A stretch of DNA of 63,820 nucleotides, counting the filler, from Stramenopiles sp. TOSAG23-6 (Eukaryota), in NCBI GenBank assembly GCA_900128565.1. It is 13 parts of 13 records of this genome, joined end to end, with 100 filler letters (N's around TTAATTAATTAA, not from the genome) between each part and the next. Parts side by side here need not be neighbours in the genome. Positions count along the whole stretch, not along the records: positions 39,726 to 46,209 come from LT636687.1; 12 more parts are not named here. One strand, written 5' to 3'. Positions 6,459 through 57,335 of this stretch are shown here, piece after piece. The first letter of the stretch is position 1. Each line of letters starts with the position of its first letter. The position numbers and the translations under genes are program-made. The notes beneath the pieces are model-generated. The model was not told the DNA's origin, searched no databases, and saw only the letters and a list, made by a program, of their open reading frames with translations.

Positions 6459-6547
6459 GTATGTTTTATTTTTTTTCAATTTTTTGTCTACATTTTTTTT
6501 CGTACGAAATTTTGTACCTAACAAATTTAAGTTTTTTTTTTGAAATA
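6459..6547 (+). other. Non-canonical intron family member, truncated at contig end
   Basis: AT|GTATGTTTT...TTTCGTACGAAATTTTGTACCTAAC...TGAAATA. Confidence 0.75.
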
Positions 6548-7929: not shown

Positions 7930-8119
7930 AATAAATGTTTACAATTTTTTTTTGAAATTTTATGGAACAAAACTGTAATTTAAATTGTTGGAGATTTTCG
8001 TCGCGTCGAAGCGATAGTTCCGTTATAAGAAATTCTAATATCTATTCTATATGGCACTATACTAGTACTAGTACGTAGTAGGTACTTTACTATAATCTAT
8101 ATCTTAAAAAATACAGAAA

Positions 8120-9284: not shown

Positions 9285-9444
9285 AATTATAAGTTGAAAA
9301 CAATGCAAAACAAAATACATTATTACCTATATTGTAAGTGTAAAACAACGCAAAGACGAAATACATAAACGAAGTTTTAACCTTTAGTATTAAAAATGTA
9401 TTTGAATCGATTTGAACTTGAAATTTTTTATTCTATTGACTCCA

Positions 9445-11719: not shown

Positions 11720-11909
11720 TTTCTGTATTTTTTAAGATATAGATTATAGTAAAGTACCTACTACGTACTAGTACTAGTATAGTGCCATATAGAATAGATA
11801 TTAGAATTTCTTATAACGGAACTATCGCTTCGACGCGACGAAAATCTCCAACAATTTAAATTACAGTTTTGTTCCATAAAATTTCAAAAAAAAATTGTAA
11901 ACATTTATT

Positions 11910-19932: not shown

Positions 19933-21435
19933 GAATATGTAGCAAATGAAGCTTCGGGAAAACACATTGTACGACGGCTAGAAAAAAATAAGAAGAATAC
20001 AAATACATTGAAGAAGAAAGACAACAAGAGTAAGGTTCGGGTAGAGCATAAAAATGGTAATGTGAAAACAAATCTTGATCACAGTTTCATATCTGGAGTT
20101 GAGGTTGAACGCAGTGACATCACTAACTGTATTCAGCATATAAATAGGGCAACTGATGATTGGAAATTTAAAATTGAGCAGATACAAAAGTTGACACATT
20201 TTGTGAAGCGAAGTGAAGAACATCCAGAATTGTGGACAAAAAAAATATTAGTTCGTGTTATCAGTCCTTTACTAATTTCACAAGTACGCGATCTACGTTC
20301 AACTGTAGTACGCGCCACATGTGATTTGATAAATGCAATTATGGAAATTCTAAAGGCAAAAGCACGATTTATACTTCGAGAACTGTTTCCAGTAATATTT
20401 GATATTGTAGGGAGTGGTAACTCTGTAATTGCGGACTATGCGCGAAATTCGTGTGTTTCTGTAGTAAAGCATGTACATGCTACAATAACATTACTCTGCA
20501 TTTCAAATATGGCAACATCATCTAAAAATTGTTCAATTCGTCTTCAAGCGATAGAATTATTTCATATTGTAATTAATACATGGGAATATTCAAAGATCAA
20601 TTCTCAGGCACAACTTTTACAAAATACATTACAGGTAGCACTTGATGACGTATCTGGTGAAGTTCGTAAAAAAGCAAGACGATATTTTGTAAAGTACAGC
20701 AATCTTTTCCCTCAAAGAGCTGATAATATATGTACGTTTTATATGAATTTCTAATTTAATTTTTTTTCATACGGAATTTCGTACCTAACGATTTTAATTT
20801 TTGAAATATGTTTTCATAATATATGCCGCATGGTCACAGGTCGCACTGCGAGATTACTAGATAAAATGAGTATAAAATCTTTACAATTAGGCTTAAAAGA
20901 TGACAAATTTCCTCCAAACATTCCAAATAATAATTTACTTGAGCCTCCTAAGCGTCTTTTAGCTTCAAAAAATAATGATCTTGAATGTAGTGAGAAGACT
21001 TCAAGTAAAGATAAAAATCTTTCAATAAAAGGTGAAACATTTACTGACAAAAATGGATATAAAAAGAATAATTCAATAAAAGGTGAAACATTTACTGACA
21101 AAAATGGATATAAAAAGAATAGTTCAAGTTCGATTAATTTTATCCGACGACTTGGAAAACAAATACAAATTGCACACAAATTACATATTGAAGATATGAT
21201 TTGTTCACTAGGTAAAGAATTGAAACTTATGGAGGATTTTGAGGAAAAAATGAAGATGGAAGGAGAAAATTTCATTGACGGAGAAAAAAAAATACATGGC
21301 GATGTTGTTGCATATGCAATTGAAATGACAAAACGCTTAGAAACACGTCAAATGATGAATGAAATTTCCGGCAATGCGTTGAGGAAGCTAGCTTCGGAAA
21401 CAATACGATTGGGAACAACTTCATCATCTTTATAA
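19933..21435 (+). CDS. CLASP-N/TOG domain protein, 5'-partial, 2 exons
   Basis: DDWKFKIEQI, QVRDLRSTVVRATC and ALDDVSGEVRKKAR are CLASP-N HEAT patterns. Intron at 20732-20824. Confidence 0.75.
20732..20824 (+). other. Non-canonical intron GT..AT (93 nt)
   Basis: AT|GTACGTTTT...CATACGGAATTTCGTACCTAAC...CATAATAT-AT|GC is in frame. An in-frame CAG also lies 15 nt downstream. Confidence 0.65.
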
Positions 21436-21557: not shown

Positions 21558-22306
21558 TTATTTATGTTTCCGTCGAGAATAACCATTCAGTGGAGCTTTA
21601 TCTATATAGTTGAGTCGCAGAGCTTCAGATAGGTGCGAAGAAAATAGGCCTTTTTGTCTAGCATGTACTGTGAAGAAATTATAGAAAACAGAAAATTCGT
21701 TAAGTACGCAATTTCCTATGAAAAAAAAAGATTTGAAATGAAAGATGAAAAGTGAAATTTTTTTTTTTTAATTTGTTAGGTACGGAATTTCGTACTAAAA
21801 AAAAACTAAATTCGAAAAATTGAAAAAAATAAACGTACATGTATTTTCAGTAATTTCTTTTCTTCCTCCGAAACTAAATGTCCAGAATACGCCAAGTCTT
21901 CTTGCATTGCCGTTTTGTGTGGATCTGATCCTCGAAGAATGAAGAGCGAATTTGCCATATTTGTGGAGGACATTCCATGCGGTACTCCTGACACTGTTTT
22001 ACGTGTTTGCTGAGCGAGGTTTTTTCGTTTATTGTATATGTCACGAGATCTATGTTTTATATAATATTTCCCCCTTTTTTTTTTATTCTTTTTTGTCATT
22101 GATAACTTTGCTTTTATTTCTTCCAGTTCTGCAGTTAGTTGGTTGCGTCTAATGTTTAACTCATCCACATCAACAACTTTTTGTCTTGTATCCTCCACAT
22201 CAAAAATCTTCTGGTTGTCCGCCATGGGCGGCTCACCTGGACTATCTGATTTATGTTCTATTTCATGGGGATATGCTCCATGTACACGCTGTGGGTGTAA
22301 AAACAT
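21558..22306 (-). CDS. Hypothetical protein, 2 exons
   Basis: ORF from the ATG at 22306. Intron 21663-21838 joins KIH to ARQKGLF...RKHK*. Confidence 0.55.
21663..21838 (-). other. Non-canonical intron with a duplicated internal core (176 nt)
   Basis: CAT|GTACGTTT...AGTACGAAATTCCGTACCTAAC...CATAGGAAATTGCGTACTTAAC...CACAGTAC-AT|GCT. Confidence 0.65.
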
Positions 22307-28003: not shown

Positions 28004-30859
28004 TTAAAACCAAACAGTTCCAGGTGGAATACAAAGTCGTTTCACAGACTCAACAGCCGACGATTTCTCCTCAGCCTTATTCACTGCAAATAGAATGTCT
28101 CTATGTATATCATTATTATATTGATCGATTACTGTAACACCTAGTGTCCTCTCGCAAACACCGCCATCTCCAACGAGACCACCGAAAAGGACCTCCTTCA
28201 TATTGGTTTGTATCATCACACCTTCATTCATATTTGTATGAACTACTTCACCGTCATGTATATGAGTATGAACATAGTGTAGCCCCCCGTGAACGTGGTA
28301 GTTGCAATATGAATTAACTGTGATTGTTTTCTTTTCTATACTTACAGTTGTGTTTGGACAAATAACTATACTGTGGAAAAATATTTTAGAAAAAAAAATG
28401 TTAGGTACGGAATTAAACCAAAAAATAAAAAGATTGAAATTTATCGTGAAAACGTACCTGTATACTCTGGCTTAATAGCAACACCTTTATGTTTCGTGTT
28501 TGAGTCAATACTAGTAAAAATGGAGTAAATTTTTTTCTGTGTTTCATCATCGGCTTCTGTTCGAGATATCGCCTGAAGAGTCCAATTAACAAAATTATTT
28601 GACATTATCTTTGGGTCACACATGCCAGGCAACAAATGTGAATCGTCCTTCAGTAACTTACTATCCTTTGTAATGGTATCAATTAATTTTTTTTCCAATT
28701 GTACTAAATCATCTGTCGGTTCTCCTCCTTTTACATATAAATCATGCATTTCTATTTTTTGACCATTAACACTTATTTCATGCTCTTCAGATATTGTTTT
28801 CAATAAATCATGTTGCTCAATTTTATCACGTTTACCTAGAACAAGTCTACTGAAAATAGTACTTTCTCCTATATCGTTTTTATTTTTCTTCTTATGTTTA
28901 TGATGTTCATGGTGTTTATGATGTTCATGATGTTTATGATGTTTATGGTGTTCATGATGCTTGTGATGATGTTTATGATGTCTATGTTTATGATGATGAT
29001 GGTGTATATTTTGTCTTTTGCGTATCTCTTTTGTAGTATGGTGATGCATGATATTACTGCCCTCTAAATTATTATGCTGATGTGCAAAATCTGAAGCTGT
29101 ACTTCCATCCTTGCTTTGAATTTCAACCAATGCTCCATGATCAAGTAATAAACGAAGTATGTCATTTGAGTGTTGCGCCGCTGAAATCATAAGTGGTGTA
29201 ATCCCATTCTCGTCTGAGCTGTTTACAAGAGCTCCGCGCTTAAACAAATTCAGTATCAATCTTTTTGATTGATTGCCAACGGCTTCCCGAAGTTCTTTAT
29301 TTAATTTGCAAGTAGTACAAAAATAATAACCTTCAGGTATTTCATTCAAGGGTGGATTCATGCAGTATAAATGACATCCTTTAGAACATCCATCGCATAA
29401 TATTATATATGTTGGGTTTACACAAGTGTTGCACACGGTACAGGGAAATTGAGGTGATGTCATTGCACCGGGCTGTTGTTGTATTACACCGGGAGGTTGC
29501 TGCATTACACCGGGCTGTGGCTGCATTACACCAGGAGGTTGCTGCATTACACCAGGTGGTTGCCGTGTAGGATCATTTAGATGAGAAACTTGACTTTGCA
29601 TAGCAGTATTCTCTAGACGACGTTCAATATTAGCTAGACGCTGCTCATCATCATCTAAACGGACATTATCATCTTTTGAAGTAGAATGTGAACTCGAACT
29701 AGACCTAGATCCAGAGCCAGAATCTGAACTAGTACCAGAATCTGAACTAGAACCAGAATCTGAACTAGAACCAGAATCTGAACGAGACCCTGAACTAGAA
29801 TCATCGCTATCTGAATAAGAGTGATGATTTGTAGTGGTCACACTTCCAACATCTGTAGTAAGAGGAGTGGTAAAACCATCAATATTATACTCCGAATCTG
29901 CAGAGTGCCGGCGTTGGTTGCGTTTATTCTTTTTGATAAAACCGCGCAACATTTCTACAATATGTTCCGGTCCCTTTTCCTTTGCAATATGTAGTGCATT
30001 CACACCTCGATGATTTTTCTTCAGAGCATTAGCACCACAATGCAATAACATGTTTGCTATGGTGTATTCCCGAGTATCCAATGCAAGCATTAGAGGAGTA
30101 TTCCCATCTTTGGCGGAAATATCTGGTGATGCACCTTGCGTTAAAAGTAACTTTGTAATATTTTTATTTCCAAGCTGCACTGCATACATCAATGCTGAAT
30201 GTCCATCTTTTGATTTAATGTCTGGATCCGCGTGAAGTTTTAAAAGCTCATTTACTATATTTAACCTACGTTCAAATGTGGCAAGCATGTATTTTGGAAA
30301 AATATTTCAAAAAAAAAACGTTAGTTACAAAATTTCGTACNNNNNNNNNNNNNNNNNNNNNNNNNNNNNNNNNNNNNNNNNNNNNNNNNNNNNNNNNNNN
30401 NNNNNNNNNNNNNNNNNNNNNNNNNNNNNNNNNNNNNNNNNNNNNNNNNNATATTCGCCGAATTTCGTGTATAGAGTGCTTTTCAGAGATTGCTGACATC
30501 AATTTCTCTCCGATTTCACATTCTGGACAACTCCAGTCTTCACTCGGCAAATTATACAGTGGTGGAGTTAAACAATGCATATGATAACATTTACCACAAT
30601 TTTTATATCTGCAGTAGATTAATCGATGTCTATTGCTATCATCATCGTCTTTACATACAGGACATACAAAAATATCTGTTTTCGATTCCCATGCATCTCT
30701 GATCTCTTGATTATGTTTTCGTGCTCTTTTGGCTTTAATACCAAAAAGATCTTTTTTAATTTGAAGATCAGTTTCACCCGCTGATTTTAATTGTTTTACA
30801 ATACGTTTATCTTCTTCTTCGTGTCCGAACACACTAAGTGCGCTATCTATACTATTCAT
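28004..30859 (-). CDS. PHD finger and ankyrin repeat protein (2 PHDs, His-rich tract), multi-exon with an N gap
   Basis: CPVC..C..C..YHMHCLTPPL..LP..DWSCPEC and a second PHD; GxTPLM ankyrin repeats. Family introns at 30287-30340 and 28366-28457. Confidence 0.8.
28366..28457 (-). other. Family intron that ends in a canonical AG (92 nt)
   Basis: AG|GTACGTTTT...CCGTACCTAAC...CCACAGTAT-AG|TT joins in frame to VICPNT...MNEGVMIQ. Confidence 0.85.
30287..30340 (-). other. Non-canonical intron, 3' part (..CCAAAATAC-AT)
   Basis: Core with GTAACTAAC next to an N gap, followed by an ankyrin exon. Confidence 0.7.
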
Positions 30860-39725: not shown

Positions 39726-39779
39726 GTACGAAATTTTGTACCTAACGATTTTTTTTTGAAATATTTTTTCACAATACTT
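39726..39779 (+). other. Non-canonical intron, 3' part (..CACAATAC-TT)
   Basis: Core plus 3' motif at the contig start. Confidence 0.7.
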
Positions 39780-40339
39780 GCTTAATGTTTCTCGATCTTG
39801 TCTTGAAGATGATTTGCAAAATTTGAAACGATACAAAATTGATTGGCCATTAATTATGAAACTTACTGAACTTCAGATTATTAATTTATCAGAAGAGAAA
39901 CGGGCCTATTTTTCAAACTTTTTTACTTCTACATTGGTACAACAACTTCTAGACGATGTATGTTTTATTTTTTTTCAATTTAAAATTTATTTTTCGTACG
40001 AAATTTTGTACCTAATGATTTTTTTTGAAATATTTTTCCAAAATACTTGAAAGGCGTTTACGAATGCAAGCAGTTAAATCCGAATACGCTGAACTTGAAA
40101 ATCTTATGGTTCAAGCAATGATTGAAATAGAGAAAGGTACACCACAAGCATTTAAAAAATACTTGAAGAAAATGGTAGAAAAATCCAAACTTAAAAAAAT
40201 AGCGACTCTATATATTCATGATTATGATGATAACGAAATTTGCTCCGATATTGGGATGTGTAGTCCTTCTGAGTTGGAAATTCCAAAGCAACCGTATATT
40301 TGGCCTTGGATGGCACGATTCTTACCTGGTGGGAGGTAA
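39780..40339 (+). CDS. Hypothetical protein C-terminus with a possible saposin-B-like end (EICSDIGMC), 2 exons visible (copy at 46364-46923)
   Basis: Intron 39958-40048 joins QQLLDD to ERRLRMQ. Confidence 0.55.
39958..40048 (+). other. Non-canonical intron GT..TT (91 nt; copy at 46542-46632)
   Basis: AT|GTATGTTTT...core...CCAAAATAC-TT|GAA. The first downstream AG leads to an early stop. Confidence 0.8.
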
Positions 40340-40550
40340 TAGATGTAATACGTAGTAATGGGTAATAGTATAATACTATTGAATTGAAAGTGAGATGATA
40401 TAAAAAATAAAAAAAAAGTAAAAAAAAAGTAAAATCATGAATTTCAAAATAAAAATAATCGCGAAATTTCAAAAAAACGCCGTATCTTTCTAAAAAAGAA
40501 ATGATAGTACACAACAAAATTTAATTATAAGAAAATATTTATAGATTACA

Positions 40551-41138
40551 ATGAAACGTAAAGTGGTTATCGAAAGGTCAAAGAATAACTCGGGAGAGCA
40601 GAGTGATTCTGGAGATGAGTCGGTATCGAAACGGAGAAAACGGCTCATGATAAGACACCGGAGTAAACACTGGAAACTAGTTGTAGATGACAAAGGGGAA
40701 GATTCAATAGTGGAAGAGAATATTTTACAAGGTGACCCAACAGAACCCCCGGAAAATTCAAACGATTCACTTGTAGATTCATCAAAAGATAAAAACGATA
40801 TATTACCAGCGATACATCCTCCTGTTGCTTCACAAAGTAATTCCGGGCCCAAGTCAACACCAAGGCTTTTAATTAGACATAGAAGTAAAGCTTTTTTAAA
40901 CACAGGCGAAACTAGTGAATCTGAAGTTGCTTTAAATGATAATGATAGTCATCACGATGAAAGTCAGGGCGATATTACAGAATTTCCCAGTATTAGTGAA
41001 ACATCCGAAGCCGTTGACTACGCTTCTTCACCAGAAGAATCTTCTACTGCTAAAGGTCAAACAAAACTCTCCGATGAAGATGAGCAAGTTGCTGCTGCGA
41101 AAGCGCTTCTTCAGTTATCACCACGAGCTAAATCATAG
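40551..41138 (+). CDS. Acidic, disordered hypothetical protein (copy at 47135-47722)
   Basis: ATG-to-TAG ORF with a repeated LxIRHRSK and C-terminal AAAKALLQLS. Confidence 0.55.
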   Translation: MKRKVVIERSKNNSGEQSDSGDESVSKRRKRLMIRHRSKHWKLVVDDKGEDSIVEENILQGDPTEPPENSNDSLVDSSKDKNDILPAIHPPVASQSNSGPKSTPRLLIRHRSKAFLNTGETSESEVALNDNDSHHDESQGDITEFPSISETSEAVDYASSPEESSTAKGQTKLSDEDEQVAAAKALLQLSPRAKS

Positions 41139-41252
41139 TGTATCTCTCTCTCTCTTTCTTCNCCCCCCCCCCCATGAAATATAAACCCTGTTCATATATG
41201 TAAGCTCCATATAAAACATTTGAAATAAATTTTATAGAAAGTAAAAAATAAT

Positions 41253-42983
41253 TCACCAAACTTCCTCTTTTTCGGCCACGGGCTCAGTTTTTTTTGGAGA
41301 GTTATGAACACCGTTACTATTTCCTTTCTCTTCATTGTTATCACCACCCATTTTATTAATAAGCTTATCCAAGAGGCCCCACTTTTGATTCCTTCGAAGT
41401 TTTTCAATTTCATTACATAAATCCTCTTTATCTTTCCAGAGTTTTTTANCACNTTCNAGNTTTTTTTTNTTNANTTGNTTTTTTCTGGGCTAGCATTTGC
41501 TTTGTTCGAAAAGTTTTACGCTCGTTTTCTATCCCAAGCATTCTAGCTTTGAATTCAAGTTTCCTCTGGATTTTTTCTACGTTATCCAATTTGTCCTTCA
41601 GCATGTTAATGAAAAAATATGTCACCAAAGTTTTTTTGTTAGGTACAAAATGTAGTATAAAAGAAAAAAAAAATTATTCATGAAAATATACCTCATTTCA
41701 GCGAGAATGTTTTTGCGTTTTCGTTCTTCATCGCGCTTTTCTCTTGCAATTTTCTGCCTTGTCTCTTTTTGCATGCGTTTTTCAATGATCTCCTTAATAC
41801 GATTCTTCTTAATTTGTTCCGCAGCTTCAAACTTTTTCTTCCGAAATTCAGCTGCAGCCTTTAAGTATGCCTCTCTTTTACGCCGTTCAATTTCTTCAAT
41901 TTTCTCCTTTTCTTTTCGATATATTGCAGCTTCTTCTTGTTTTTTCGTGTAATCGTCTATAATTTTTTGCTGCTTGAAAGCATCGCGTTCTAACGCTTTT
42001 GCTATTCTGAGTTTACTTTTATCCCGCACTTTTTGGCGTTCAATTCTCATTAATCTATTTGCTTCATCCATTCGTTCTAATCTGATTTGATTTGCGAGTT
42101 CCATATCCTTCATTTTTTGAAGTAGACGTTGTCGCTCATTTTTTTCAGCTTCTTCTGCATCTTCTTTTTTCTTTATTGCAGCTTTTACTGAGGCCGCATC
42201 GCGTTTTCTTTGCTCCCTTTGAAATGCTAATAATTCAGCTGCTTTTTTTTCCTTTGCAATTTTTCTCTCTCTATAATCTTTCTTTGCTTGCTCACGTGCA
42301 AGAGCACGTTCCTGTTTCAATCTTTGTTTTTTTTCAACATCTCTCTGACGCCGTAATTCTGCATTCGCAATTTGTCTGTCTTTACGTTCTTTGTTTCGTT
42401 TTTCTGTTTCTTTCTGTTCCCTTGCTCGTTTTGCTGCAGCTTCTGCAGTAACTTTGTTCATTGTCTTCTCAAATTCAATTACTCCTTCAATCTCTCGACG
42501 TTGTCTATCTCTGATAGCTTTCATTCTGATCATTTCAGCTTTGATCATTGAACTATTATCACCACCTCCTGACTTCATGGAATTTGCAAGAACCTGTGCA
42601 GCAACAGCGGAACCAAATCCTTTCTTCTCCCGTGGAGGTGCTTTATTTGTAACAACTTCACCACGAGAGTTGCATTCGTTTCTTATTACATCTTCACGAG
42701 TTTGCTGAAGTTCCCAAAGCTTTCGCTGACGCTTATCTTCAAAATGTTTGTACTTCACAACAGCTAATTGCTTCCGCAAAGCAATATTTTTATTTTTTTT
42801 ATCACTAAATGTGTGTATTGCTCGGCGTTGAAGTTCTTCTTTTGAAAACCCACAACGCTCGGCAGCAAATGAAACTCTAGGTGTACCTAGTCGTATAAGA
42901 AAATCCTCTTGTTCCTCAGTAACTCTAGGACGTTTTGATTTCCCCTTCATACCAGCCACGCCATCTCTGGAAGATCTTACCAT
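41253..42983 (-). CDS. Charged coiled-coil protein (flagellar-associated-like), 2 exons, low-quality bases near 41450 (copy at 47837-49567)
   Basis: Long R/K/E-rich helix. Intron 41603-41691 joins AEMR to LKDKLDNVEK. Confidence 0.65.
41603..41691 (-). other. Non-canonical intron GT..AT (89 nt; copy at 48187-48275)
   Basis: AG|GTATATTTT...TTTTGTACCTAAC...TTCATTAAC-AT|G is in frame. Confidence 0.75.
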
Positions 42984-43154
42984 ACTCTTCTATACTGCTT
43001 TAATCACCGATTTGTTTCAGTTTTGCTGAAAGATACAAGATGTTGATTGGATAATAGTACTACCTTCAAAACGAACGTTTCATAAAAAAAAAAACACGAA
43101 ATATACGATTTTTATTTTTTCGAAGATGTATTGCCAATATTTAGATTAGTTCTG

Positions 43155-44584
43155 TCAAATAGGAGAGTCAAATATAGGTTTCATGTAATCTTTACCATAG
43201 CATACAATGAGAAGTTCATTAACCAGCGAATCTGTTGGAACGAGGACATCAATTCCCCAAAGTTTTCCATTGACTTTGTATTGTAAAAAAATATTAAAAA
43301 AAAAGAATCCTTAGGTACAAAATTTCGTACGAAAAATATTGAAATTTTAAAATGGACAACATACAAATTATCCGTAAATGCTCTTTCATAGTTCTTCCAC
43401 GGCCCGACAGTTACTGTGTCTGGAACAATATCGACATGAAGGTCACCTTTATAATCTTGATCACATTGTGAATAAACCCTATCATTAATAGTGTATGGCT
43501 CTGTACATGAAAATTTGATCAATTGTGCTTGAACACCATTATAGTTCAATTTCTCCATATTTTGAACTCTTTTATCATGTATTGTGAAAAATTATTTTTT
43601 TTTTTTTTTCGGTAAAAAAAAAAAAAAAAAAATCGTTAGGTACACAATTTCGTATGAAAAAATAAATTCGAAATTGAAAAGAAAACCTACATATTGCAAA
43701 TTATTTTCATTATCAGAACATTTAGATGCATCGCATGTTAATGTTTGACTATATTTTTTCCAAGAATTTAAAACAGTTTCATCTCGTAAATTCACGCGAA
43801 GGTCCACATCATCATCATGAATAATAGGTTCTCCTCTCTTGAATTCTAATAGAGTTCCATTAGAAAGTGTTTATTGTGAAAAATATTTTTTTTTTTAAAA
43901 ATATCGTTAGGTACGAAATTTCATACCAAAAAAAAAAAGATTGAAAATCATCATGAAAACGTACATTACTGGAATATGATTTTTTTTCATTGTAGATGTT
44001 ATTGCTTTAAGTATTGCAACTCTATATTGATATACATAGCTATAATTTTCAGGTGTTATTTTTATCTGAGAGTGTTGATATTTATCAGCGATGGGATTTT
44101 CATTGTTCTTTTTATCTTTGATGTCTTCGATATCTTCATTATTTTTTGATATTGTTATTTCTGTTGTAGTAGCATCGCTAGTTGCTTCAATATTATCACC
44201 AGTCTTTATATTTTCATTATTTGTATTATGCCCTGCTTTATCCTCTTTGATATTACCATCATTCGTTTCAACAATATCCGCAACGTTACTCGCAATAATC
44301 TTATCAACGGTCTCATTATTATCCGGTGTATAAAGCTCAGGAAATGTTTTATCGTCACTCTTTAAGCTCTTTAACTTTGCTTTGAACCTTGAATTATCTT
44401 TTTTATTCTGAGATTTTACGGGTTTCATTAAATACGTACTGATACGATTAGCCCATACCTCTGATGTATTGTCAAGTTTGAGATAGTCAGAACCAAACCG
44501 TTTCCTTGACGACAAAGTAGCCAAGTTTTTTGCTGTAGAAAAATTGACAGATAAAACAAGTAAAAAGAATTCAAAGAATTGCAT
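43155..44584 (-). CDS. LicD-family phosphocholine/nucleotidyl transferase with a signal peptide, 4 exons (copy at 49739-51168)
   Basis: Spliced product contains HIPVILSNGTLLEFKRGEPIIHDDDVD, LHVDI, and GKLWGIDVLVPTD...CYGKDYMKP. Confidence 0.8.
43276..43364 (-). other. Non-canonical intron GT..AA (89 nt)
   Basis: TT|GTATGTTG...core...TACAATAC-AA|AGTC. Using the AG 2 nt downstream gives a stop within a few codons. Confidence 0.8.
43577..43690 (-). other. Non-canonical intron GT..AT (114 nt)
   Basis: AT|GTAGGTTTT...core...CACAATAC-AT|GAT is in frame. Confidence 0.8.
43869..43964 (-). other. Non-canonical intron GT..AC (96 nt)
   Basis: AT|GTACGTTTT...CGTACCTAAC...CACAATAA-AC|ACTT restores IPVILSNGTLL. 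Confidence 0.8.
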
Positions 44585-44831
44585 TGTTCTTCCAAGCAAA
44601 TTCTTGTGATTGTGCGAAAATTAGACGTGTGTACAATTCACCCAAAGTACCACACAGTTGTAGAATATTCTATGTGGTGGTTTATGTTGTTTGACGTTAT
44701 TTTTGAATTTTTTTGAAAAATTTTTGAAATCGAAATCGAAATATTTTTCCGAATAGAATACATCCGAAATCGCCTAAAAATGTTTCACAACAACTATATT
44801 TACTATTTTATATACATGAATACATTGAACA

Positions 44832-46143
44832 TTATAAATCAACATGAATGCCCGAACATAGGCCTTTACCTTGTAAGTAGTTATGGTGAATCGATCTCAT
44901 TTGAGTTTCAGAAAGTCCAGAAAGTGAAGCTGATCCCTCGACACATCCTTGGTTCTCAATATCTATGAAAAAGGGCAAATCTATAGGTGTTATTTTTAAT
45001 TCTTTTTGTAGCCAATAAGCAACACTAACATCTTCCAAGGTTCCAATTGCTTTAAGAGTGCCTCTTTGTGCTTTTCTACTCAAAAACTCTACTAAATCAT
45101 GTGAAAGAATGTAGTGAGAACCATGGGCAAAAGGAGGGAAAGCTGCTCCATCAAAGTCAGAAAAGGGAACATAATTTCTATGAGATGGTTCGCGCATTGG
45201 CCAGACTTTTCGATGAAATCGTGTTGCCCAAACTTCCCCAAAAAATGCTTTTGATACGGGTGCTCCATTTTCAGGTCGTAGTTGCTTTACAATATTATCA
45301 AGTGTGACGTAGACATCAGCATCAATCATCAAAACATACTTAAAATTGAAGTGGGAAGTTATATACGCAAAGAATGACACAGTTTTTTGAACTAATGTAA
45401 AATAACTATCAATCACATCAATCGAATCTTCTAATAGTAAGTCTCCATATTTAGCTTGTTCCTCTTCAAGTTCTTTCTTTGCTTTATCCTTGTCAGCAAA
45501 TTTTGTCCAATCAGGTCGGCCGATGATGAATAAAATTTTTGTAGTACTGTTCGTATGATCACTACCCGATATCCAAGTTTCTCTTGCTGTCATCCGTCTT
45601 GACACGGATTTTGCAGCGACTTTTATACCTACAATGACATTTACATTTTTTTTCTTTATTTTTCTGAATTCACCAGATGTTGGTGTGTATTGTTTCAAAT
45701 AAACTGGTTGTTGTTTGGGTTGGTTAGTGGCAAATTTATCTTTGTCATGATCATTTGTGTAATAGACATCTTTTGGATGAAAGAGCATGGATTGCCCAAC
45801 AGCAGGTTGGAGTGAAAAATTGACATGATTTGTTTTACCAATAGCTTCATACAAAATATTACATGGTGCACTACCTAGCATACCTACACAATTATTCTTC
45901 TCTTTTGTAGCTTTTTGATTTGGTCGTATAACTACTCCGGCAGCGGATGTGTCCATTAGAGTTGCAGTCATGGAGTATTTTCCTGTGACCAAGTTTTTTA
46001 ATTGAACAACTGATGCAAAAAGACCTTCACACCAACGCCATTCTTTGCCTTTAGGTTCCAACAAATCCGGACCCTTCATTGTGAAACACATCGCAGTAGA
46101 TTCTTCATTACGTTCGTTGAAACTTTTAACATCGTCCACCAGA
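44832..46143 (-). CDS. GT31 beta-1,3-galactosyltransferase-like, 5'-partial (copy at 51416-52727)
   Basis: RRMTARETW, LEEEQAKYGDLL, DSYFTLVQKT, YVLMIDADVYV, FPPFAHGSHYILSHDLV, LEDVSVAYWL. Confidence 0.9.
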
Positions 46144-46209
46144 ATGTATTTTGAAAAAATATTTCAAAAAAAAAACTTAAATTTGTTAGGTACAAAATTT
46201 CGTACGAAA
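46144..46209 (-). other. Non-canonical intron, 3' part (..TCAAAATAC-AT)
   Basis: Core plus 3' motif at the contig end. Confidence 0.7.
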
Positions 46210-49200
46210 NNNNNNNNNNNNNNNNNNNNNNNNNNNNNNNNNNNNNNNNNNNNTTAATTAATTAANNNNNNNNNNNNNNNNNNNNNNNNNNNNNNNNNNN
46301 NNNNNNNNNGTACGAAATTTTGTACCTAACGATTTTTTTTTGAAATATTTTTTCACAATACTTGCTTAATGTTTCTCGATCTTGTCTTGAAGATGATTTG
46401 CAAAATTTGAAACGATACAAAATTGATTGGCCATTAATTATGAAACTTACTGAACTTCAGATTATTAATTTATCAGAAGAGAAACGGGCCTATTTTTCAA
46501 ACTTTTTTACTTCTACATTGGTACAACAACTTCTAGACGATGTATGTTTTATTTTTTTTCAATTTAAAATTTATTTTTCGTACGAAATTTTGTACCTAAT
46601 GATTTTTTTTGAAATATTTTTCCAAAATACTTGAAAGGCGTTTACGAATGCAAGCAGTTAAATCCGAATACGCTGAACTTGAAAATCTTATGGTTCAAGC
46701 AATGATTGAAATAGAGAAAGGTACACCACAAGCATTTAAAAAATACTTGAAGAAAATGGTAGAAAAATCCAAACTTAAAAAAATAGCGACTCTATATATT
46801 CATGATTATGATGATAACGAAATTTGCTCCGATATTGGGATGTGTAGTCCTTCTGAGTTGGAAATTCCAAAGCAACCGTATATTTGGCCTTGGATGGCAC
46901 GATTCTTACCTGGTGGGAGGTAATAGATGTAATACGTAGTAATGGGTAATAGTATAATACTATTGAATTGAAAGTGAGATGATATAAAAAATAAAAAAAA
47001 AGTAAAAAAAAAGTAAAATCATGAATTTCAAAATAAAAATAATCGCGAAATTTCAAAAAAACGCCGTATCTTTCTAAAAAAGAAATGATAGTACACAACA
47101 AAATTTAATTATAAGAAAATATTTATAGATTACAATGAAACGTAAAGTGGTTATCGAAAGGTCAAAGAATAACTCGGGAGAGCAGAGTGATTCTGGAGAT
47201 GAGTCGGTATCGAAACGGAGAAAACGGCTCATGATAAGACACCGGAGTAAACACTGGAAACTAGTTGTAGATGACAAAGGGGAAGATTCAATAGTGGAAG
47301 AGAATATTTTACAAGGTGACCCAACAGAACCCCCGGAAAATTCAAACGATTCACTTGTAGATTCATCAAAAGATAAAAACGATATATTACCAGCGATACA
47401 TCCTCCTGTTGCTTCACAAAGTAATTCCGGGCCCAAGTCAACACCAAGGCTTTTAATTAGACATAGAAGTAAAGCTTTTTTAAACACAGGCGAAACTAGT
47501 GAATCTGAAGTTGCTTTAAATGATAATGATAGTCATCACGATGAAAGTCAGGGCGATATTACAGAATTTCCCAGTATTAGTGAAACATCCGAAGCCGTTG
47601 ACTACGCTTCTTCACCAGAAGAATCTTCTACTGCTAAAGGTCAAACAAAACTCTCCGATGAAGATGAGCAAGTTGCTGCTGCGAAAGCGCTTCTTCAGTT
47701 ATCACCACGAGCTAAATCATAGTGTATCTCTCTCTCTCTTTCTTCNCCCCCCCCCCCATGAAATATAAACCCTGTTCATATATGTAAGCTCCATATAAAA
47801 CATTTGAAATAAATTTTATAGAAAGTAAAAAATAATTCACCAAACTTCCTCTTTTTCGGCCACGGGCTCAGTTTTTTTTGGAGAGTTATGAACACCGTTA
47901 CTATTTCCTTTCTCTTCATTGTTATCACCACCCATTTTATTAATAAGCTTATCCAAGAGGCCCCACTTTTGATTCCTTCGAAGTTTTTCAATTTCATTAC
48001 ATAAATCCTCTTTATCTTTCCAGAGTTTTTTANCACNTTCNAGNTTTTTTTTNTTNANTTGNTTTTTTCTGGGCTAGCATTTGCTTTGTTCGAAAAGTTT
48101 TACGCTCGTTTTCTATCCCAAGCATTCTAGCTTTGAATTCAAGTTTCCTCTGGATTTTTTCTACGTTATCCAATTTGTCCTTCAGCATGTTAATGAAAAA
48201 ATATGTCACCAAAGTTTTTTTGTTAGGTACAAAATGTAGTATAAAAGAAAAAAAAAATTATTCATGAAAATATACCTCATTTCAGCGAGAATGTTTTTGC
48301 GTTTTCGTTCTTCATCGCGCTTTTCTCTTGCAATTTTCTGCCTTGTCTCTTTTTGCATGCGTTTTTCAATGATCTCCTTAATACGATTCTTCTTAATTTG
48401 TTCCGCAGCTTCAAACTTTTTCTTCCGAAATTCAGCTGCAGCCTTTAAGTATGCCTCTCTTTTACGCCGTTCAATTTCTTCAATTTTCTCCTTTTCTTTT
48501 CGATATATTGCAGCTTCTTCTTGTTTTTTCGTGTAATCGTCTATAATTTTTTGCTGCTTGAAAGCATCGCGTTCTAACGCTTTTGCTATTCTGAGTTTAC
48601 TTTTATCCCGCACTTTTTGGCGTTCAATTCTCATTAATCTATTTGCTTCATCCATTCGTTCTAATCTGATTTGATTTGCGAGTTCCATATCCTTCATTTT
48701 TTGAAGTAGACGTTGTCGCTCATTTTTTTCAGCTTCTTCTGCATCTTCTTTTTTCTTTATTGCAGCTTTTACTGAGGCCGCATCGCGTTTTCTTTGCTCC
48801 CTTTGAAATGCTAATAATTCAGCTGCTTTTTTTTCCTTTGCAATTTTTCTCTCTCTATAATCTTTCTTTGCTTGCTCACGTGCAAGAGCACGTTCCTGTT
48901 TCAATCTTTGTTTTTTTTCAACATCTCTCTGACGCCGTAATTCTGCATTCGCAATTTGTCTGTCTTTACGTTCTTTGTTTCGTTTTTCTGTTTCTTTCTG
49001 TTCCCTTGCTCGTTTTGCTGCAGCTTCTGCAGTAACTTTGTTCATTGTCTTCTCAAATTCAATTACTCCTTCAATCTCTCGACGTTGTCTATCTCTGATA
49101 GCTTTCATTCTGATCATTTCAGCTTTGATCATTGAACTATTATCACCACCTCCTGACTTCATGGAATTTGCAAGAACCTGTGCAGCAACAGCGGAACCAA

Positions 49201-52200
49201 ATCCTTTCTTCTCCCGTGGAGGTGCTTTATTTGTAACAACTTCACCACGAGAGTTGCATTCGTTTCTTATTACATCTTCACGAGTTTGCTGAAGTTCCCA
49301 AAGCTTTCGCTGACGCTTATCTTCAAAATGTTTGTACTTCACAACAGCTAATTGCTTCCGCAAAGCAATATTTTTATTTTTTTTATCACTAAATGTGTGT
49401 ATTGCTCGGCGTTGAAGTTCTTCTTTTGAAAACCCACAACGCTCGGCAGCAAATGAAACTCTAGGTGTACCTAGTCGTATAAGAAAATCCTCTTGTTCCT
49501 CAGTAACTCTAGGACGTTTTGATTTCCCCTTCATACCAGCCACGCCATCTCTGGAAGATCTTACCATACTCTTCTATACTGCTTTAATCACCGATTTGTT
49601 TCAGTTTTGCTGAAAGATACAAGATGTTGATTGGATAATAGTACTACCTTCAAAACGAACGTTTCATAAAAAAAAAAACACGAAATATACGATTTTTATT
49701 TTTTCGAAGATGTATTGCCAATATTTAGATTAGTTCTGTCAAATAGGAGAGTCAAATATAGGTTTCATGTAATCTTTACCATAGCATACAATGAGAAGTT
49801 CATTAACCAGCGAATCTGTTGGAACGAGGACATCAATTCCCCAAAGTTTTCCATTGACTTTGTATTGTAAAAAAATATTAAAAAAAAAGAATCCTTAGGT
49901 ACAAAATTTCGTACGAAAAATATTGAAATTTTAAAATGGACAACATACAAATTATCCGTAAATGCTCTTTCATAGTTCTTCCACGGCCCGACAGTTACTG
50001 TGTCTGGAACAATATCGACATGAAGGTCACCTTTATAATCTTGATCACATTGTGAATAAACCCTATCATTAATAGTGTATGGCTCTGTACATGAAAATTT
50101 GATCAATTGTGCTTGAACACCATTATAGTTCAATTTCTCCATATTTTGAACTCTTTTATCATGTATTGTGAAAAATTATTTTTTTTTTTTTTTCGGTAAA
50201 AAAAAAAAAAAAAAAATCGTTAGGTACACAATTTCGTATGAAAAAATAAATTCGAAATTGAAAAGAAAACCTACATATTGCAAATTATTTTCATTATCAG
50301 AACATTTAGATGCATCGCATGTTAATGTTTGACTATATTTTTTCCAAGAATTTAAAACAGTTTCATCTCGTAAATTCACGCGAAGGTCCACATCATCATC
50401 ATGAATAATAGGTTCTCCTCTCTTGAATTCTAATAGAGTTCCATTAGAAAGTGTTTATTGTGAAAAATATTTTTTTTTTTAAAAATATCGTTAGGTACGA
50501 AATTTCATACCAAAAAAAAAAAGATTGAAAATCATCATGAAAACGTACATTACTGGAATATGATTTTTTTTCATTGTAGATGTTATTGCTTTAAGTATTG
50601 CAACTCTATATTGATATACATAGCTATAATTTTCAGGTGTTATTTTTATCTGAGAGTGTTGATATTTATCAGCGATGGGATTTTCATTGTTCTTTTTATC
50701 TTTGATGTCTTCGATATCTTCATTATTTTTTGATATTGTTATTTCTGTTGTAGTAGCATCGCTAGTTGCTTCAATATTATCACCAGTCTTTATATTTTCA
50801 TTATTTGTATTATGCCCTGCTTTATCCTCTTTGATATTACCATCATTCGTTTCAACAATATCCGCAACGTTACTCGCAATAATCTTATCAACGGTCTCAT
50901 TATTATCCGGTGTATAAAGCTCAGGAAATGTTTTATCGTCACTCTTTAAGCTCTTTAACTTTGCTTTGAACCTTGAATTATCTTTTTTATTCTGAGATTT
51001 TACGGGTTTCATTAAATACGTACTGATACGATTAGCCCATACCTCTGATGTATTGTCAAGTTTGAGATAGTCAGAACCAAACCGTTTCCTTGACGACAAA
51101 GTAGCCAAGTTTTTTGCTGTAGAAAAATTGACAGATAAAACAAGTAAAAAGAATTCAAAGAATTGCATTGTTCTTCCAAGCAAATTCTTGTGATTGTGCG
51201 AAAATTAGACGTGTGTACAATTCACCCAAAGTACCACACAGTTGTAGAATATTCTATGTGGTGGTTTATGTTGTTTGACGTTATTTTTGAATTTTTTTGA
51301 AAAATTTTTGAAATCGAAATCGAAATATTTTTCCGAATAGAATACATCCGAAATCGCCTAAAAATGTTTCACAACAACTATATTTACTATTTTATATACA
51401 TGAATACATTGAACATTATAAATCAACATGAATGCCCGAACATAGGCCTTTACCTTGTAAGTAGTTATGGTGAATCGATCTCATTTGAGTTTCAGAAAGT
51501 CCAGAAAGTGAAGCTGATCCCTCGACACATCCTTGGTTCTCAATATCTATGAAAAAGGGCAAATCTATAGGTGTTATTTTTAATTCTTTTTGTAGCCAAT
51601 AAGCAACACTAACATCTTCCAAGGTTCCAATTGCTTTAAGAGTGCCTCTTTGTGCTTTTCTACTCAAAAACTCTACTAAATCATGTGAAAGAATGTAGTG
51701 AGAACCATGGGCAAAAGGAGGGAAAGCTGCTCCATCAAAGTCAGAAAAGGGAACATAATTTCTATGAGATGGTTCGCGCATTGGCCAGACTTTTCGATGA
51801 AATCGTGTTGCCCAAACTTCCCCAAAAAATGCTTTTGATACGGGTGCTCCATTTTCAGGTCGTAGTTGCTTTACAATATTATCAAGTGTGACGTAGACAT
51901 CAGCATCAATCATCAAAACATACTTAAAATTGAAGTGGGAAGTTATATACGCAAAGAATGACACAGTTTTTTGAACTAATGTAAAATAACTATCAATCAC
52001 ATCAATCGAATCTTCTAATAGTAAGTCTCCATATTTAGCTTGTTCCTCTTCAAGTTCTTTCTTTGCTTTATCCTTGTCAGCAAATTTTGTCCAATCAGGT
52101 CGGCCGATGATGAATAAAATTTTTGTAGTACTGTTCGTATGATCACTACCCGATATCCAAGTTTCTCTTGCTGTCATCCGTCTTGACACGGATTTTGCAG

Positions 52201-52893
52201 CGACTTTTATACCTACAATGACATTTACATTTTTTTTCTTTATTTTTCTGAATTCACCAGATGTTGGTGTGTATTGTTTCAAATAAACTGGTTGTTGTTT
52301 GGGTTGGTTAGTGGCAAATTTATCTTTGTCATGATCATTTGTGTAATAGACATCTTTTGGATGAAAGAGCATGGATTGCCCAACAGCAGGTTGGAGTGAA
52401 AAATTGACATGATTTGTTTTACCAATAGCTTCATACAAAATATTACATGGTGCACTACCTAGCATACCTACACAATTATTCTTCTCTTTTGTAGCTTTTT
52501 GATTTGGTCGTATAACTACTCCGGCAGCGGATGTGTCCATTAGAGTTGCAGTCATGGAGTATTTTCCTGTGACCAAGTTTTTTAATTGAACAACTGATGC
52601 AAAAAGACCTTCACACCAACGCCATTCTTTGCCTTTAGGTTCCAACAAATCCGGACCCTTCATTGTGAAACACATCGCAGTAGATTCTTCATTACGTTCG
52701 TTGAAACTTTTAACATCGTCCACCAGAATGTATTTTGAAAAAATATTTCAAAAAAAAAACTTAAATTTGTTAGGTACAAAATTTCGTACGAAANNNNNNN
52801 NNNNNNNNNNNNNNNNNNNNNNNNNNNNNNNNNNNNNTTAATTAATTAANNNNNNNNNNNNNNNNNNNNNNNNNNNNNNNNNNNNNNNNNNNN

Positions 52894-52949: not shown

Positions 52950-55900
52950 TTGGTCCATTTCATCAAAAAAGGAAGCAAATGTTTTATACATCGATGAGTT
53001 TTTTATTGCTCTTTGTCTTATTTCTTGTGCTCAAAATCAACAAAAAGTTGATATTTCAAGTTTATCTTTATCATTAGAGCTACCACCTGCAAAATTTGAA
53101 GGTATTGATTTACCTTTAGGAATTGATCATTCTTTAAAACAACAAACAAAAATAACACCAACAACAAAAACAACAACAACAACAACACCAACAATATTAC
53201 CACCAGCACCACCACCAGCACCAACAACAACAACAACACCAACACCAACAACAACGCCACCAACAAAAACAACAACAACAACAACAACAACACCAACAAA
53301 ACCAGAAACACTACGCCGTGATACATCAGATATTGATGATGTAATGATGCGAATGATTGATTGTTCACCAACTACATCAAAGAAAACATCAGAAGAGGAG
53401 AGTTTAAGTCTTAGTGCATTGAAAATTCGCAAACGATCAAATACAAAATCTATTGATGAGATTGAATCAACGTATTATAGATTATTATTTAATGCTGTTG
53501 ATAAAACGGGTGCTAATGATGAAAAATTAAAGGGTAAAGAAGTCGTTACATTTATGAAAAAATCTGGTATTGATAAAAATGTGTTGAAAGAAATTTGGAT
53601 TTTAGCTGATCAAAATAGAAATTATTATCTTGAATTTAATGAATTTATTATAGCCATGCGATTAATCGCATTAGTGCAATCTAAAATGTCTCTTGATATA
53701 ACAAAAGTATCAAATATAGATACATTTATTGCATTAAATATCCCTCTTGCTCAATTTGAAGGTCATCCTACACCACCAGTCTTACCTGGAAGTCTAAGTC
53801 GTCTGGGTGGAATATATGTTTTATTTTATTTCAATTTCGAATTTATTTTTTTTTTTGGTAAAAAATTTTTGTACCTAACAAATTTTTTTTTTATAGAAAA
53901 TTTTGAAATATTTTTTCAAAATAAATGATTGTCCAAAAAAATAATGATAAAATGTCAGCATTTGATGATATTGATGATATTGATGATAAAATGTCAGGAT
54001 TTAATAGTATTGATGATAAAAATGATAATGATACTAATGATACTAATGAAAACAATGATACTAATGAAAACAATGATACTAATGATAGTAATAAGGATAA
54101 TGATGGTCCACAAGAACAAGTAGAAGATTTATTTTCTACAAATAATATAGAAATCATTTCGAATGATTTAAACCCTAACCCTCATGAAGATGATTCAATA
54201 CACACTAACCCTAATGATTGTATTGAAAAAAATCCTACAATTCCAATTTCTTTATTTAATTCTGGTGATATTGTATTCCGTCTTAATCAACGTAATGTAT
54301 ACCAACCAGCAATTATTTTAAAAGTTCACAAAGATGATCCAACAATTTCAAGTGTTTATTACACAGTACGTGTTGGTACTTCTGATGGTAAAGGTAGAGA
54401 AATTCAAACTGTTTCCGAGAGATTATTTTTTGCAACTTCAATGACTGACGTTCTTATTCAAAAGTATTTTAAAGAATTATCCCAAGTAAATATCTCAAAT
54501 GTTGACATCACAAATGATTCTTCAGCGACAAATACTACAAATACTACAAATACTACAAATATAAATACAAATAATCATCATAATAATACAAATAATAATA
54601 ATACTATAAATACTACTACAAATACTACTACAAATAACGCAATGGTGGGTGGTAAAAATGCTGTAATTTTTTTTTCTCGTTCCAAAATTTTGAAATCAAT
54701 TTTAAGACAAATTTGGAGTATTGTCGATGATCAAAATATTGGACAATTGTCATTTGCACAGTTTACATTAGTCATGCATTTTATTTCTTTGGCACAAAGT
54801 AGTATAAGTGAAACTATACAATGGCCAAATTTAAATCTTTCTAAAGGTTTAGAAATATTATCAAAATATCCAATGCAACCTTGTTTGATGATTTTAACAG
54901 ATGATGAAAATAAACAAAATCAAAATGTACAAAATCAGTATGTAAATGATATTAATACGACTGCATTATTCAATTCTAAAGAATTACAAGATGATAATAA
55001 TAATAATAATAATAATAATATATTACTTAATTCCAAAGAATTACAAGATGATAATAATAATAATAATAATAATATATTACTTAATTCTAAAGAATTACAA
55101 GATGATAATAATAATAATAATATATTACTTAATTCTAAAGAATTACAAGATGATAAAAATTCAGTATTGACAAATACAAAATCTATTGATGAGATTGAAT
55201 CAACGTATTATAGATTATTATTTAATGCTGTTGATAAAACGGGTGCTAATGATGAAAAATTAAAGGGTAAAGAAGTCGTTACATTTATGAAAAAATCTGG
55301 TATTGATAAAAATGTGTTGAAAGAAATTTGGATTTTAGCTGATCAAAATAGAAATTATTATCTTGAATTTAATGAATTTATTATAGCCATGCGATTAATC
55401 GCATTAGTGCAATCTAAAATGTCTCTTGATATAACAAAAGTATCAAATATAGATACATTTATTGCATTAAATATCCCTCTTGCTCAATTTGAAGGTCATC
55501 CTACACCACCAGTCTTACCTAAAATAGATGTTGAAACGACAGTTACAAATGATGATGAATGGGGTGCATTTACAGATGGTACTTTGGATAATGATTTGAT
55601 GATGAATGATACTACTACTACTACTACTAATAATAATAATAATAAAGAAGAAAAAGAAGAAGAAGAAGAAGAATGGGGTGCATTTAAAGATGGTACTTTG
55701 GATAATGATTTGATGATGAATGATAATAATAAAGAAGAAAAAGAAAAAGAAGAAGAAGAAGAATGGGGTGCATTTACAGATGGTACTTTGGATAATGATT
55801 TGATGATGAATGATACTACTACTACTACTACTAATAATAATAATAATAAAGAAGAAAAAGAAGAAGAAGAAGAAGAATGGGGTGCATTTAAAGATGGTAC

Positions 55901-57335
55901 TTTGGATAATGATTTGATGATGAATGATAATAATAAAGAAGAAAAAGAAAAAGAAGAAGAAGAAGAATGGGGTGCATTTACAGATGGTACTTTGGATAAT
56001 GATTTGATGATGAATGATACTACTACTAATAATAAAGAAGAAGAAGAAGAATGGGGTGCATTTACAGATGGTACTTTGGATAATAAAAGTACAGACTTGA
56101 ATGATACTAATAATAATAAAGAAGAAAAAAAAGAAAAAGAAAAAAAAGAAAAAGAAGAATGGGAAGATTTTAATGAAGGAGAATTTGAATTTCCAGAAGG
56201 AAAAGTTCATGATATTTCCTCTACTGATGATGATGATGATAATAAAGAGACTTCATCATTAGGTACGAATATCGATTTATTTAGTGCATTTGATGAGATT
56301 GGATGTAATGCGTATGAAGATTTTAAGGGTAGTGAAATGAAGCGTCCATCTCTAAGCTTGGAAAATTTAAGTGAAGGATTGAGCACTAACCCTAACCCGA
56401 ACATTGATGCAAATCAATTAGATCCTACAGATTCATTACAATCATCAAAATCATCAAAATCATTAAAACGGAAGCCTTCATTGAATATAAATACATCTTT
56501 TGGAAGCTCATTCCTCTCAGATATGTCACATGTATCATCACAAAGTTGTGTATCAATTCCTAGTATAAAATCACCATCATCTCCGTTTGCTGGTGATGAA
56601 TGGTTGAAAGATCCAAATATATGTATGTTTTATTTTTTTTCAATGTTTAGTTTTAGTTTACATTTGTTGTTTTTTTTTTTATAGGAAAAAAAAAATGTTG
56701 TACCTAACAAATTTTTTTAGAATTTTTTTAAAAATATTTTTCCAAAATATATCAATACCAGATAATAAAAGTATTCATTGGCCTATCAAGGGTAATTTTA
56801 CAACAGTTGTAGCTGCATTGCTTTCAACAGGACGTGTTGCTGATGCTGCAGCATGTCAATTACATATAGTCAAACTTGACGAATTATGTATGTTTTAATT
56901 TTTTTTTGTATGAATTTTTTTTTTTTTGGTGAAAAAATTTTGTACCTAACAAATTTAAGTTTTTTTTTTGAAATATTTTTCCAAAATATATCTGTGTTGG
57001 AGCAAGATATTGAAGATGCACGAAATAATGAAGATTTGTCACTCATTGGTCATCTCAAAAAACGAATTGAAATGTTGAAAAAATCATTAGTTAGTGAAGA
57101 TATTCAATCATCTTGGAGATTGTCTGATGATAATTGGAAAGATGAATATGTTACAAATGATGTACATGATGAAAATACAGATAATGTAAATGATGAAAAT
57201 ACAGATAATATGAATGATGAAAATACAGATAATGTAAATGATGAAAATACAGATGATAACAACGAAAACAACAATAACAACAAAAAAGATACAAACAATA
57301 CAAACAATACAAACAATACAAACAATACAAACAAT

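Follow-up and report, generated by a model that had tools for sequence, protein, structure and literature searches.

How is an intron removed when its conserved 3' end carries no AG? The question is raised by a locus in Stramenopiles sp. TOSAG23-6, where an initial annotation of positions 39994-40048 had proposed that an extended branch-site module and a 3' hairpin may replace AG recognition, with partial resemblance to U12-type signals. The window (the whole stretch of 63,820 nucleotides that was analysed) consists of 13 size-sorted scaffolds (~6.5 kb, then ~1.0 kb) joined by six-frame-stop linkers of the form N44-TTAATTAATTAA-N44, and scaffolds that stand side by side in it need not adjoin in the genome. 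One of them, 39726-46209, is present a second time, letter for letter, at 46310-52793.

The G+C content of the window is 24-41%, and its long open reading frames (ORFs) are eukaryotic, with VPS11, EH-domain, ankyrin/PHD, actin-like, galactosyltransferase, CLASP/TOG and ion-transport domains. The VPS11-like ORF (window 20-2176) is identical to a database protein ("assembled CDS", GSMAST prefix) except for five in-frame gaps in the entry; going by the source's name for this identical protein, we take the host to be an AT-rich marine protist, a stramenopile of the MAST kind. The five in-frame segments are absent from the public model though the ORF is uninterrupted, and the one inspected is a 39-nt GT...AG stretch, which suggests that the introns in that model were invented by a gene finder that accepts only GT-AG. 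An Rfam search of the 64-kb window returned no snRNA at the gathering threshold, and at E <= 1 it returned only a MIR2646-like match at 9837-10075 (scaffold 6648-13191), whose 147 bits lie below the gathering score of 245. We rejected this match as a microRNA; it is the centre of that scaffold's long inverted duplication, which has the look of a chimera from amplification or assembly.

The flagged stretch is the 3' two-thirds (about the back half) of an intron at 39958-40048, referred to below as the target intron. Its parts and surroundings are:

39726-39779, plus strand: neighbouring copy of the same element, 3' part, cut by the scaffold end (nhmmer match 39726-39782, E = 4.3e-12; model end at 39779)
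39780-39957, plus strand: upstream exon (open frame 39760-39957; its left border is another copy, cut by the scaffold start)
39958-40048, plus strand: target intron, a family copy of 91 nt, GTATGT...ATACTT (GT...TT), delimited by frame analysis
39958-39966, plus strand: 5' splice site GTATGTTTT (family consensus GTAYGTTTT)
39992-40003, plus strand: 12-nt palindrome TTTCGTACGAAA, seen directly in the sequence
40004-40016, plus strand: extended branch box TTTTGTACCTAAT, with the branch A predicted at 40015, 33 nt before the 3' junction
40027-40048, plus strand: 3' terminal motif GAAATATTTTTCCAAAATACTT (T-tract, CAMAATAC and 2 nt)
40049-40339, plus strand: downstream exon, 96 codons and a TAA stop

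The frame is open for 66 codons before the intron (phase 0) and for 96 codons after it, from 40049. The layout that had been described for this stretch, a palindrome with TTTTGTACCTAA directly 3' of it, is present (the latter at 40004-40015), but the CTAAC assigned to the box reads CTAAT in the target copy, since base 40016 is T. TTTTGAAA-TAT-TTTTCCAAAA follows at 40023-40043, then TACTT to 40048, and the first AG past the branch box stands 5 nt downstream of the junction, out of frame. We infer the position of this junction from the family to which the intron belongs; the junction found in RNA (see below) comes from another copy.

The motif is real and non-random, and its sequence is as first described. 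The 20-nt core GTACGAAATTTTGTACCTAA occurs 32 times in the window with at most 3 mismatches, against 0.04 expected, and none of 100 shuffles reaches 32. The palindrome occurs 18 times with at most 1 mismatch, against 0.32 expected, part of this count being redundancy because scaffold 39726-46209 is duplicated at 46310-52793. With duplicates removed there are 23 distinct branch regions and 22 distinct 3' ends, and an nhmmer profile search adds copies of greater divergence, on either strand and in many unrelated genes. The copies thus form a family that interrupts ORFs, with near-identical introns at unrelated positions, as is characteristic of introners: the 64 kb contain at least 23 distinct copies, and the genes that carry them differ in Pfam content. 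Nine of the 26 scaffold ends lie inside family copies, as a repeat is expected to break assemblies. The individual copies used below, besides the target, are:

3473-3576, minus strand: copy of 104 nt, GT...AT, placed by frame
7603-7709, plus strand: copy of 107 nt, GT...AT, at the end of an ion-transport domain gene (inverted duplicate at 12129-12241)
10826-10888, minus strand: short version of a copy, 63 nt (same locus at 8951-9089 with an N gap)
20732-20824, plus strand: copy of 93 nt, GT...AT, within a CLASP/TOG-domain gene, placed by frame and homologue profile
21663-21838, minus strand: copy of 176 nt with two branch boxes, GTACCTAAC and GTACTTAAC, and a CAG 5 nt before the inferred end
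28366-28457, minus strand: diverged copy, GT...AG, whose fixed-position end happens to read AG, placed by frame
41603-41691, minus strand: copy of 89 nt, GT...AT, placed by frame, also in independent metagenome DNA
43276-43364, minus strand: copy of 89 nt, GT...AA, placed by frame
43577-43690, minus strand: copy of 114 nt, GTAGGT...ATACAT, with a T-run/A-run hairpin insertion in the spacer, placed by frame
43869-43964, minus strand: RNA-supported copy of 96 nt, GTACGT...CACAATAAAC (GT...AC)
53814-53926, plus strand: copy starting ATATGT (A at position 1) and ending AAAT, in frame with 294 open codons before and 918 after
56623-56752, plus strand: copy of 130 nt, GT...AT, placed by frame
56888-56991, plus strand: copy of 104 nt, GT...AT, placed by frame

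The two boxes of copy 21663-21838 apparently reflect an internal partial duplication, and its frame test is weak, the downstream ORF being short (34 codons). Another copy starts at 6459 and is cut by the end of its scaffold, which also holds an enolase-like ORF (window 4693-6543); this ORF has an extra N-terminal region, and among solved structures it best matches the phosphopyruvate hydratase chain of 7n6g, the first 80 residues of that chain included. A scan of JGI metagenome contigs with a 19-nt core gave two loci. The first (L001, 1-546), on a short contig from an unrelated metagenome, is a true copy of which the 5' two-thirds follow an open frame and the 3' part diverges; the contig is possibly chimeric, and its remainder looks unrelated. 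We rejected the second (L002) as a chance match within a bacterial-looking ORF. A scan of viral contigs for the family core gave 0 matches. A crude screen of the window for non-family introns (GTANGT...YTAAY) returned only matches within long ORFs, which is not evidence that other introns are absent.

The family layout is GTAYGTTTT, a variable A/T spacer, TTTCGTACGAAA (in young copies), TTTTGTACCTAAC, a spacer of ~3-30 nt and (G)AAATATTTTTYCAMAATACAT|; that the spacers vary freely in length, as had been noted, is seen in the family alignment. Among the 16 listed 5' ends (15 loci), the consensus GTAYGTTTT has G1 in 15/16, T2 and A3 in 16/16, G5 in 14/16 and T6-T9 in 15-16/16, so that the GT lies in a U1/U6-complementary context (GTAYGT) as in U2-type introns. 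The predicted CTAAC-type box lies 33-59 nt before the end and, again as in U2-type introns, 5' of a pyrimidine tract; T occupies positions -16 to -12 in 18-22 of 22 ends. The initial annotation is upheld in that these are introns whose extended branch box and 3' terminal motif are both conserved. GTACCTAA is intact in 21 of the 23 unique copies, with the TAC.TAA columns (T29, A30, C31, T33, A34, A35) invariant. Among the 22 unique 3' ends, A stands at -4 in all 22, T at -5 in 21, A at -7 in 21, A at -9 in 21 and C at -10 in 18, and the last three nucleotides are less uniform (C at -3 in 14, A at -2 in 19, T at -1 in 19). The first exon base after the intron is G in 14/22.

Diverged copies separate what may be signal from what may be ancestry. 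The branch box, the 5' site and the 3' motif remain intact in them where other parts decay, which fits the selection on motifs that had been suggested earlier; as judged from the alignment, these three elements behave as if selected, and the copies being related by descent, part of the conservation is due to recency. The palindrome had also been described as much more conserved than the spacers. This holds for the youngest-looking copies only: it is perfect in 7 of the 23 unique copies, and in the five most diverged ones it has 5-8 mismatches of 12, a spacer-like decay, against 0-2 in the 13-nt box TTTTGTACCTAAC. In our view the palindrome is a leftover of the young element rather than a signal for splicing; a direct duplication of TTTYGTAC around GAAA would also explain it.

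No covariation supports the palindrome helix in the family alignment: one pair is changed on both sides (2 cells), against a shuffled mean of 1.9, 394/500 shuffles reach the score, and paired cells amount to 74% against 71% in shuffled alignments. An alternative GUACGA/UUGUAC helix, which competes with the palindrome helix and adjoins CUAAC, fares no better, with 0 pairs changed on both sides, 120/500 shuffles reaching the score and 69% paired cells against 68%. The 3' hairpin that had been proposed to shorten the gap between the branch box and the acceptor has -1.6 kcal/mol in the target, against -1.1 for dinucleotide shuffles (z = -0.40), and its arms are mismatched in CACAATAC-type copies. 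Some long-spacer copies have A-run/T-run hairpins with z down to -7.6, and other copies are without structure; in copy 43577-43690 a run of ~20 T and a run of ~15 A in the spacer form a long hairpin (z = -3.95), and similar hairpins occur in three other copies. With the spacer hairpins folded out, the branch-to-end distance in the 13 complete copies is inconsistent (13-35 nt). Whole introns give negative z-scores in 12/13 cases compared with shuffles, a signal that is weak because the copies are related.

The reading frame bears on the 3' junction. When the intron is taken from the G of GTAYGT to 2 nt past ...AATAC, elements of this length class restore the frame in 14/14 complete copies, with long ORFs on both sides. 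Taken as GT...ATAC, all of the 8 canonical copies first examined are off by the same one base, unlike the RNA-supported copy, which with the ends given by its RNA joint is in frame. The rule for the 3' end was set on these 8 copies and then held for 5 further ones by frame and for the RNA-supported copy. The first AG past the branch box is in frame in 3/13 copies, which is the chance level, and the dinucleotide at the junction is AG in 1 of 22 unique 3' ends, so the family departs from U2-type introns at this point. The proposal that AG is not the 3' junction is thus upheld, by frames as well as by RNA. Protein searches with the exons 43595-43867 and 43967-44620 gave no match, and hence no public model of that gene, in the length ranges searched.

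One junction of the family is found in RNA. The comparison with RNA and DNA contigs covered 41479-46209, with the target intron lying outside this range; parts of it bare of RNA contigs are uninformative. The polyA metatranscriptome contigs X8 record 20 and X9 record 26 match 43965-44111 or 43965-44047 and then pick up directly at 43868. The 96 nt that they skip (43869-43964) read GTACGT...CACAATAAAC; the same RNA cannot be obtained by placing the joint elsewhere, and the spliced product keeps the frame. This is one junction only, seen in assembled contigs and not in reads, in an atypical copy (...ATAAAC), and both runs (X8 and X9) come from one study. Where other copies usually have ...ATAC+AT, this one has ...ATAA+AC; it is cut after AC, 23 nt from the closest AG, at the offset from CACAATA that was inferred for the rest. 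The alignment of X8 record 20 moreover reaches a single base into the neighbouring copy (to 43690), as a following exon with G as its first base after ...ACAT| would predict; cuts at ATAC| or AATA| would not predict it. From DNA, run X3 record 1 (an independent metagenome) spans 41479-41717 ungapped, so copy 41603-41691 is kept there. Removal of the element therefore leaves the ORF intact, as in introners, in 14/14 frames and at one junction in polyA RNA contigs (not that of the target copy).

We consider it likely that these introns, of roughly 90 nt, belong to a high-copy introner family whose donor and branch signals are yeast-like and whose 3' junction is anchored by a motif and not by AG, and that the family has spread like a transposon through the genes of a MAST-like protist. 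The introns are probably U2-type, with presumed spliceosomal chemistry, branching at CUAAC and origin by transposition. Each copy brings its own yeast-like major-spliceosome signals, namely 5' GTAYGTTTT, the branch box (TTTT)GTACCTAAC and a T-tract within (G)AAATATTTTTY. The 3' junction would lie at a fixed place, 3 nt past the nearly invariant AAUA of CAMAATAC, giving intron ends that are mostly ...ACAT| and in the target ...ACTT|. The last 2-3 intron nucleotides often repeat the last nucleotides of the upstream exon, and removal of the element together with one copy of the repeat would restore the original ORF. The branch box in its RNA form, UACCUAAC, may be an extended branch site, for which snRNA pairing is a prediction; TAC-C-TAAC, with one C more than the yeast box, could be accommodated by a standard GUAGUA through an additional bulge, or else by an altered U2.

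More tentatively, one introner family may supply most introns of this lineage, with the major spliceosome reading an AG-free 3' site (AAUA and 3 nt, mostly ...CAU|) by way of a dedicated reader; this is possible, and we do not count it as probable. The reader would be a divergent U2AF-like protein or an snRNA segment. If so, a transposon rewrote the acceptor rule of a genome in which the donor and branch rules stayed yeast-like.

The ends of the elements bear on how they were inserted. Together with the last two exon nucleotides, the intron ends (ATGTAY/RTACAT inverted repeats) can form 4-6 bp; covariation in this terminal pairing, at position 4 against -6, is not significant (U-A in 5 copies, C-G in 2, C.A in 4). 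Direct repeats at the junctions come to 2.62, against 2.12 +/- 0.23 in permuted pairs, and 140/5000 permutations reach the observed value; examples are one 10-nt repeat, one 6-nt repeat and one AG/AG pair. The excess is modest, and the AT at either end may belong to the consensus instead of reflecting a target duplication. The end repeats fit a short target duplication, or an insertion into AT, followed by removal of the element with one repeat, and do not amount to proof of either.

Other readings account for part of these data. One keeps the same introner and its spliceosomal removal and ends typical copies 3 nt earlier (GT...AATA|), the CAT then staying in the mRNA as a codon-length insertion, for example as a 3-bp target duplication. 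Because the difference is 3 nt, the frame is kept just as well by an end at AATA| in 14/14 copies; in 4/13 copies the last 3 nt of the intron, as delimited under our main reading, equal the last 3 exon nt, and conservation is higher for the AAUA at -7 to -4 than for those final 3 nt. We nevertheless think this reading unlikely: the RNA-supported copy is cut 3 nt past AATA, and the earlier end predicts a C where X8 record 20 extends onto a G. It also does less well in a comparison at the only junction that lies within a Pfam domain, CLASP_N (copy 20732-20824), with a profile of 124 distant homologues, where the end 2 nt past ATAC aligns ungapped with 196.0 bits and the end 3 nt earlier needs a one-residue insertion and reaches 193.9 bits. 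The profile gives the later end modest support, by 2.1 bits, and it is only by positional analogy, the one-base extension of the alignment and these 2.1 bits that the earlier end is, modestly, disfavoured. Were the family made of ordinary GT-AG introns, with an AG near the motif as acceptor and the conserved motif merely repeat sequence, the AG at the junction of copy 28366 and the in-frame AG of three copies would be accounted for; but the first AG is out of frame in 10/13 copies (in the target as described above), copy 3473-3576 has none within 60 nt, and the RNA junction AC| contradicts this reading for the RNA-supported copy, leaving it extremely improbable overall.

U12-type introns have a 5' RTATCCTTT, a branch site TCCTTAAC ~10-20 nt from the 3' end and no pyrimidine tract. 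A minor-spliceosome origin (U12-type or U12-like), with 3' dinucleotide tolerance explaining the missing AG, draws on the AC end of the RNA-supported copy, on 3' ends that vary, and on the match of GTATGTTTT to RTATCCTTT at 7/9 and of TACCTAAC to TCCTTAAC at 6/8 positions. The resemblance, which the initial annotation had placed between the two types, turns out to be superficial: positions +5/+6 are G (14/16) and T (16/16) where a U12-type 5' site has its CC core, the predicted branch A stands 33-59 nt upstream of the intron end, which a T-tract precedes, and no U11, U12, U4atac or U6atac was found in the window, 64 kb only, so that we regard a minor-spliceosome origin as very improbable. Only a little less so, and still quite improbable, is a structure-guided, non-conventional excision such as has been proposed for Amoebophrya introners and euglenid introns, in which AUGUAY/RUACAU end pairing would juxtapose the junctions and GTAYGT and CTAAC would be incidental. 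G1 can pair with -3 in 11/13 copies, U2 with -4 in 13/13 and A3 with -5 in 12/13, 4-6 bp are possible, the ends are paired in the MFE fold of 4/13 copies, and direct repeats overlap the junctions. Against it, the RNA-supported copy pairs poorly at its ends yet is cut at the expected place, the ends show no significant covariation and no stable pairing beyond 6 bp, and a near-invariant branch box and GTAYGT in diverged copies are left unexplained.

Full-text literature search found no description of this intron family or of the TACCTAAC branch box in the main texts. In the accessible text of a paper on uncultured stramenopile single-cell genomes, introns are mentioned twice, both times in the methods, and splice sites go unmentioned (PMC5778133), and in that of a 2026 preprint on protist single-cell genomes introns appear only as a genome fraction. 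Large introner surveys, as far as their accessible text describes the method, start from annotated introns and filter out unfamiliar splice sites (PMC12130899); distrusting such sites, they would miss the family found here. Gene finders that accept only GT-AG will break or distort most genes in such assemblies. With this family, an uncultured heterotrophic stramenopile lineage would join those in which a single mobile family is the main source of introns. If our reading is true, it is also a natural case in which the canonical donor and branch are kept and the AG acceptor is replaced by a position-defined end, which bears on site choice in the second catalytic step.

Yeast-type U2 introns have GTATGT, TACTAAC and YAG. 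The family resembles them in its GTAYGT 5' end, its CTAAC and its branch-to-end distances, which are in the yeast range, and differs in a box with one extra C (TAC-C-TAAC) and in an end of ...AYAT| instead of YAG|. With U12-type introns it shares a long conserved 5' site and branch box, tolerance in the 3' dinucleotide and one GT...AC example; unlike them it is without the 5' CC core, has a branch-to-end distance of 33-59 nt and has a T-tract.

Among mobile introns, the introners of Aureococcus anophagefferens and Micromonas pusilla carry, according to the accessible text of the study, canonical splice motifs, direct repeats and terminal inverted repeats whose length is constant (PMC7789003). 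The present elements are likewise short non-autonomous repeats at unrelated positions in many genes, with their own splice signals, putative inverted-repeat ends and a modest excess of direct repeats at the junctions, and removal of the element with one repeat would restore the ORF as it does there (PMC7789003). They differ from what that text reports in being non-AG (AG in 1/22), in an inverted repeat of only ~6 nt and in having a yeast-like GTAYGT and CTAAC box built in (PMC7789003). The non-canonical introners of Amoebophrya, according to the same accessible text, have non-GT-AG borders, 3-5 nt direct repeats over the exon/intron borders and 8-20 nt inverted repeats, with no conserved terminal signature reported; U1 was not detected, and gene prediction was confounded (PMC7789003). 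Repeated introns, non-GT-AG borders, confounded gene prediction and, tentatively, direct repeats at the junctions and terminal inverted repeats are common to both, but in the family described here the 5' GT(A)YGT and the branch box are almost invariant and, relative to the Amoebophrya introners as described there, only the 3' dinucleotide departs (PMC7789003).

In the tunicate Fritillaria borealis, divergent U2AF paralogues read non-canonical introns with non-AG ends, as stated in the accessible text of its description (PMC13326754). As is proposed for the present family, a major-type spliceosome there copes with non-AG 3' ends; unlike it, F. borealis belongs to an animal lineage, and most of its 5' ends are, by that account, also non-GT (PMC13326754). 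By analogy with the tunicate, a dedicated reader of the 3' end is a plausible mechanism for the family here.
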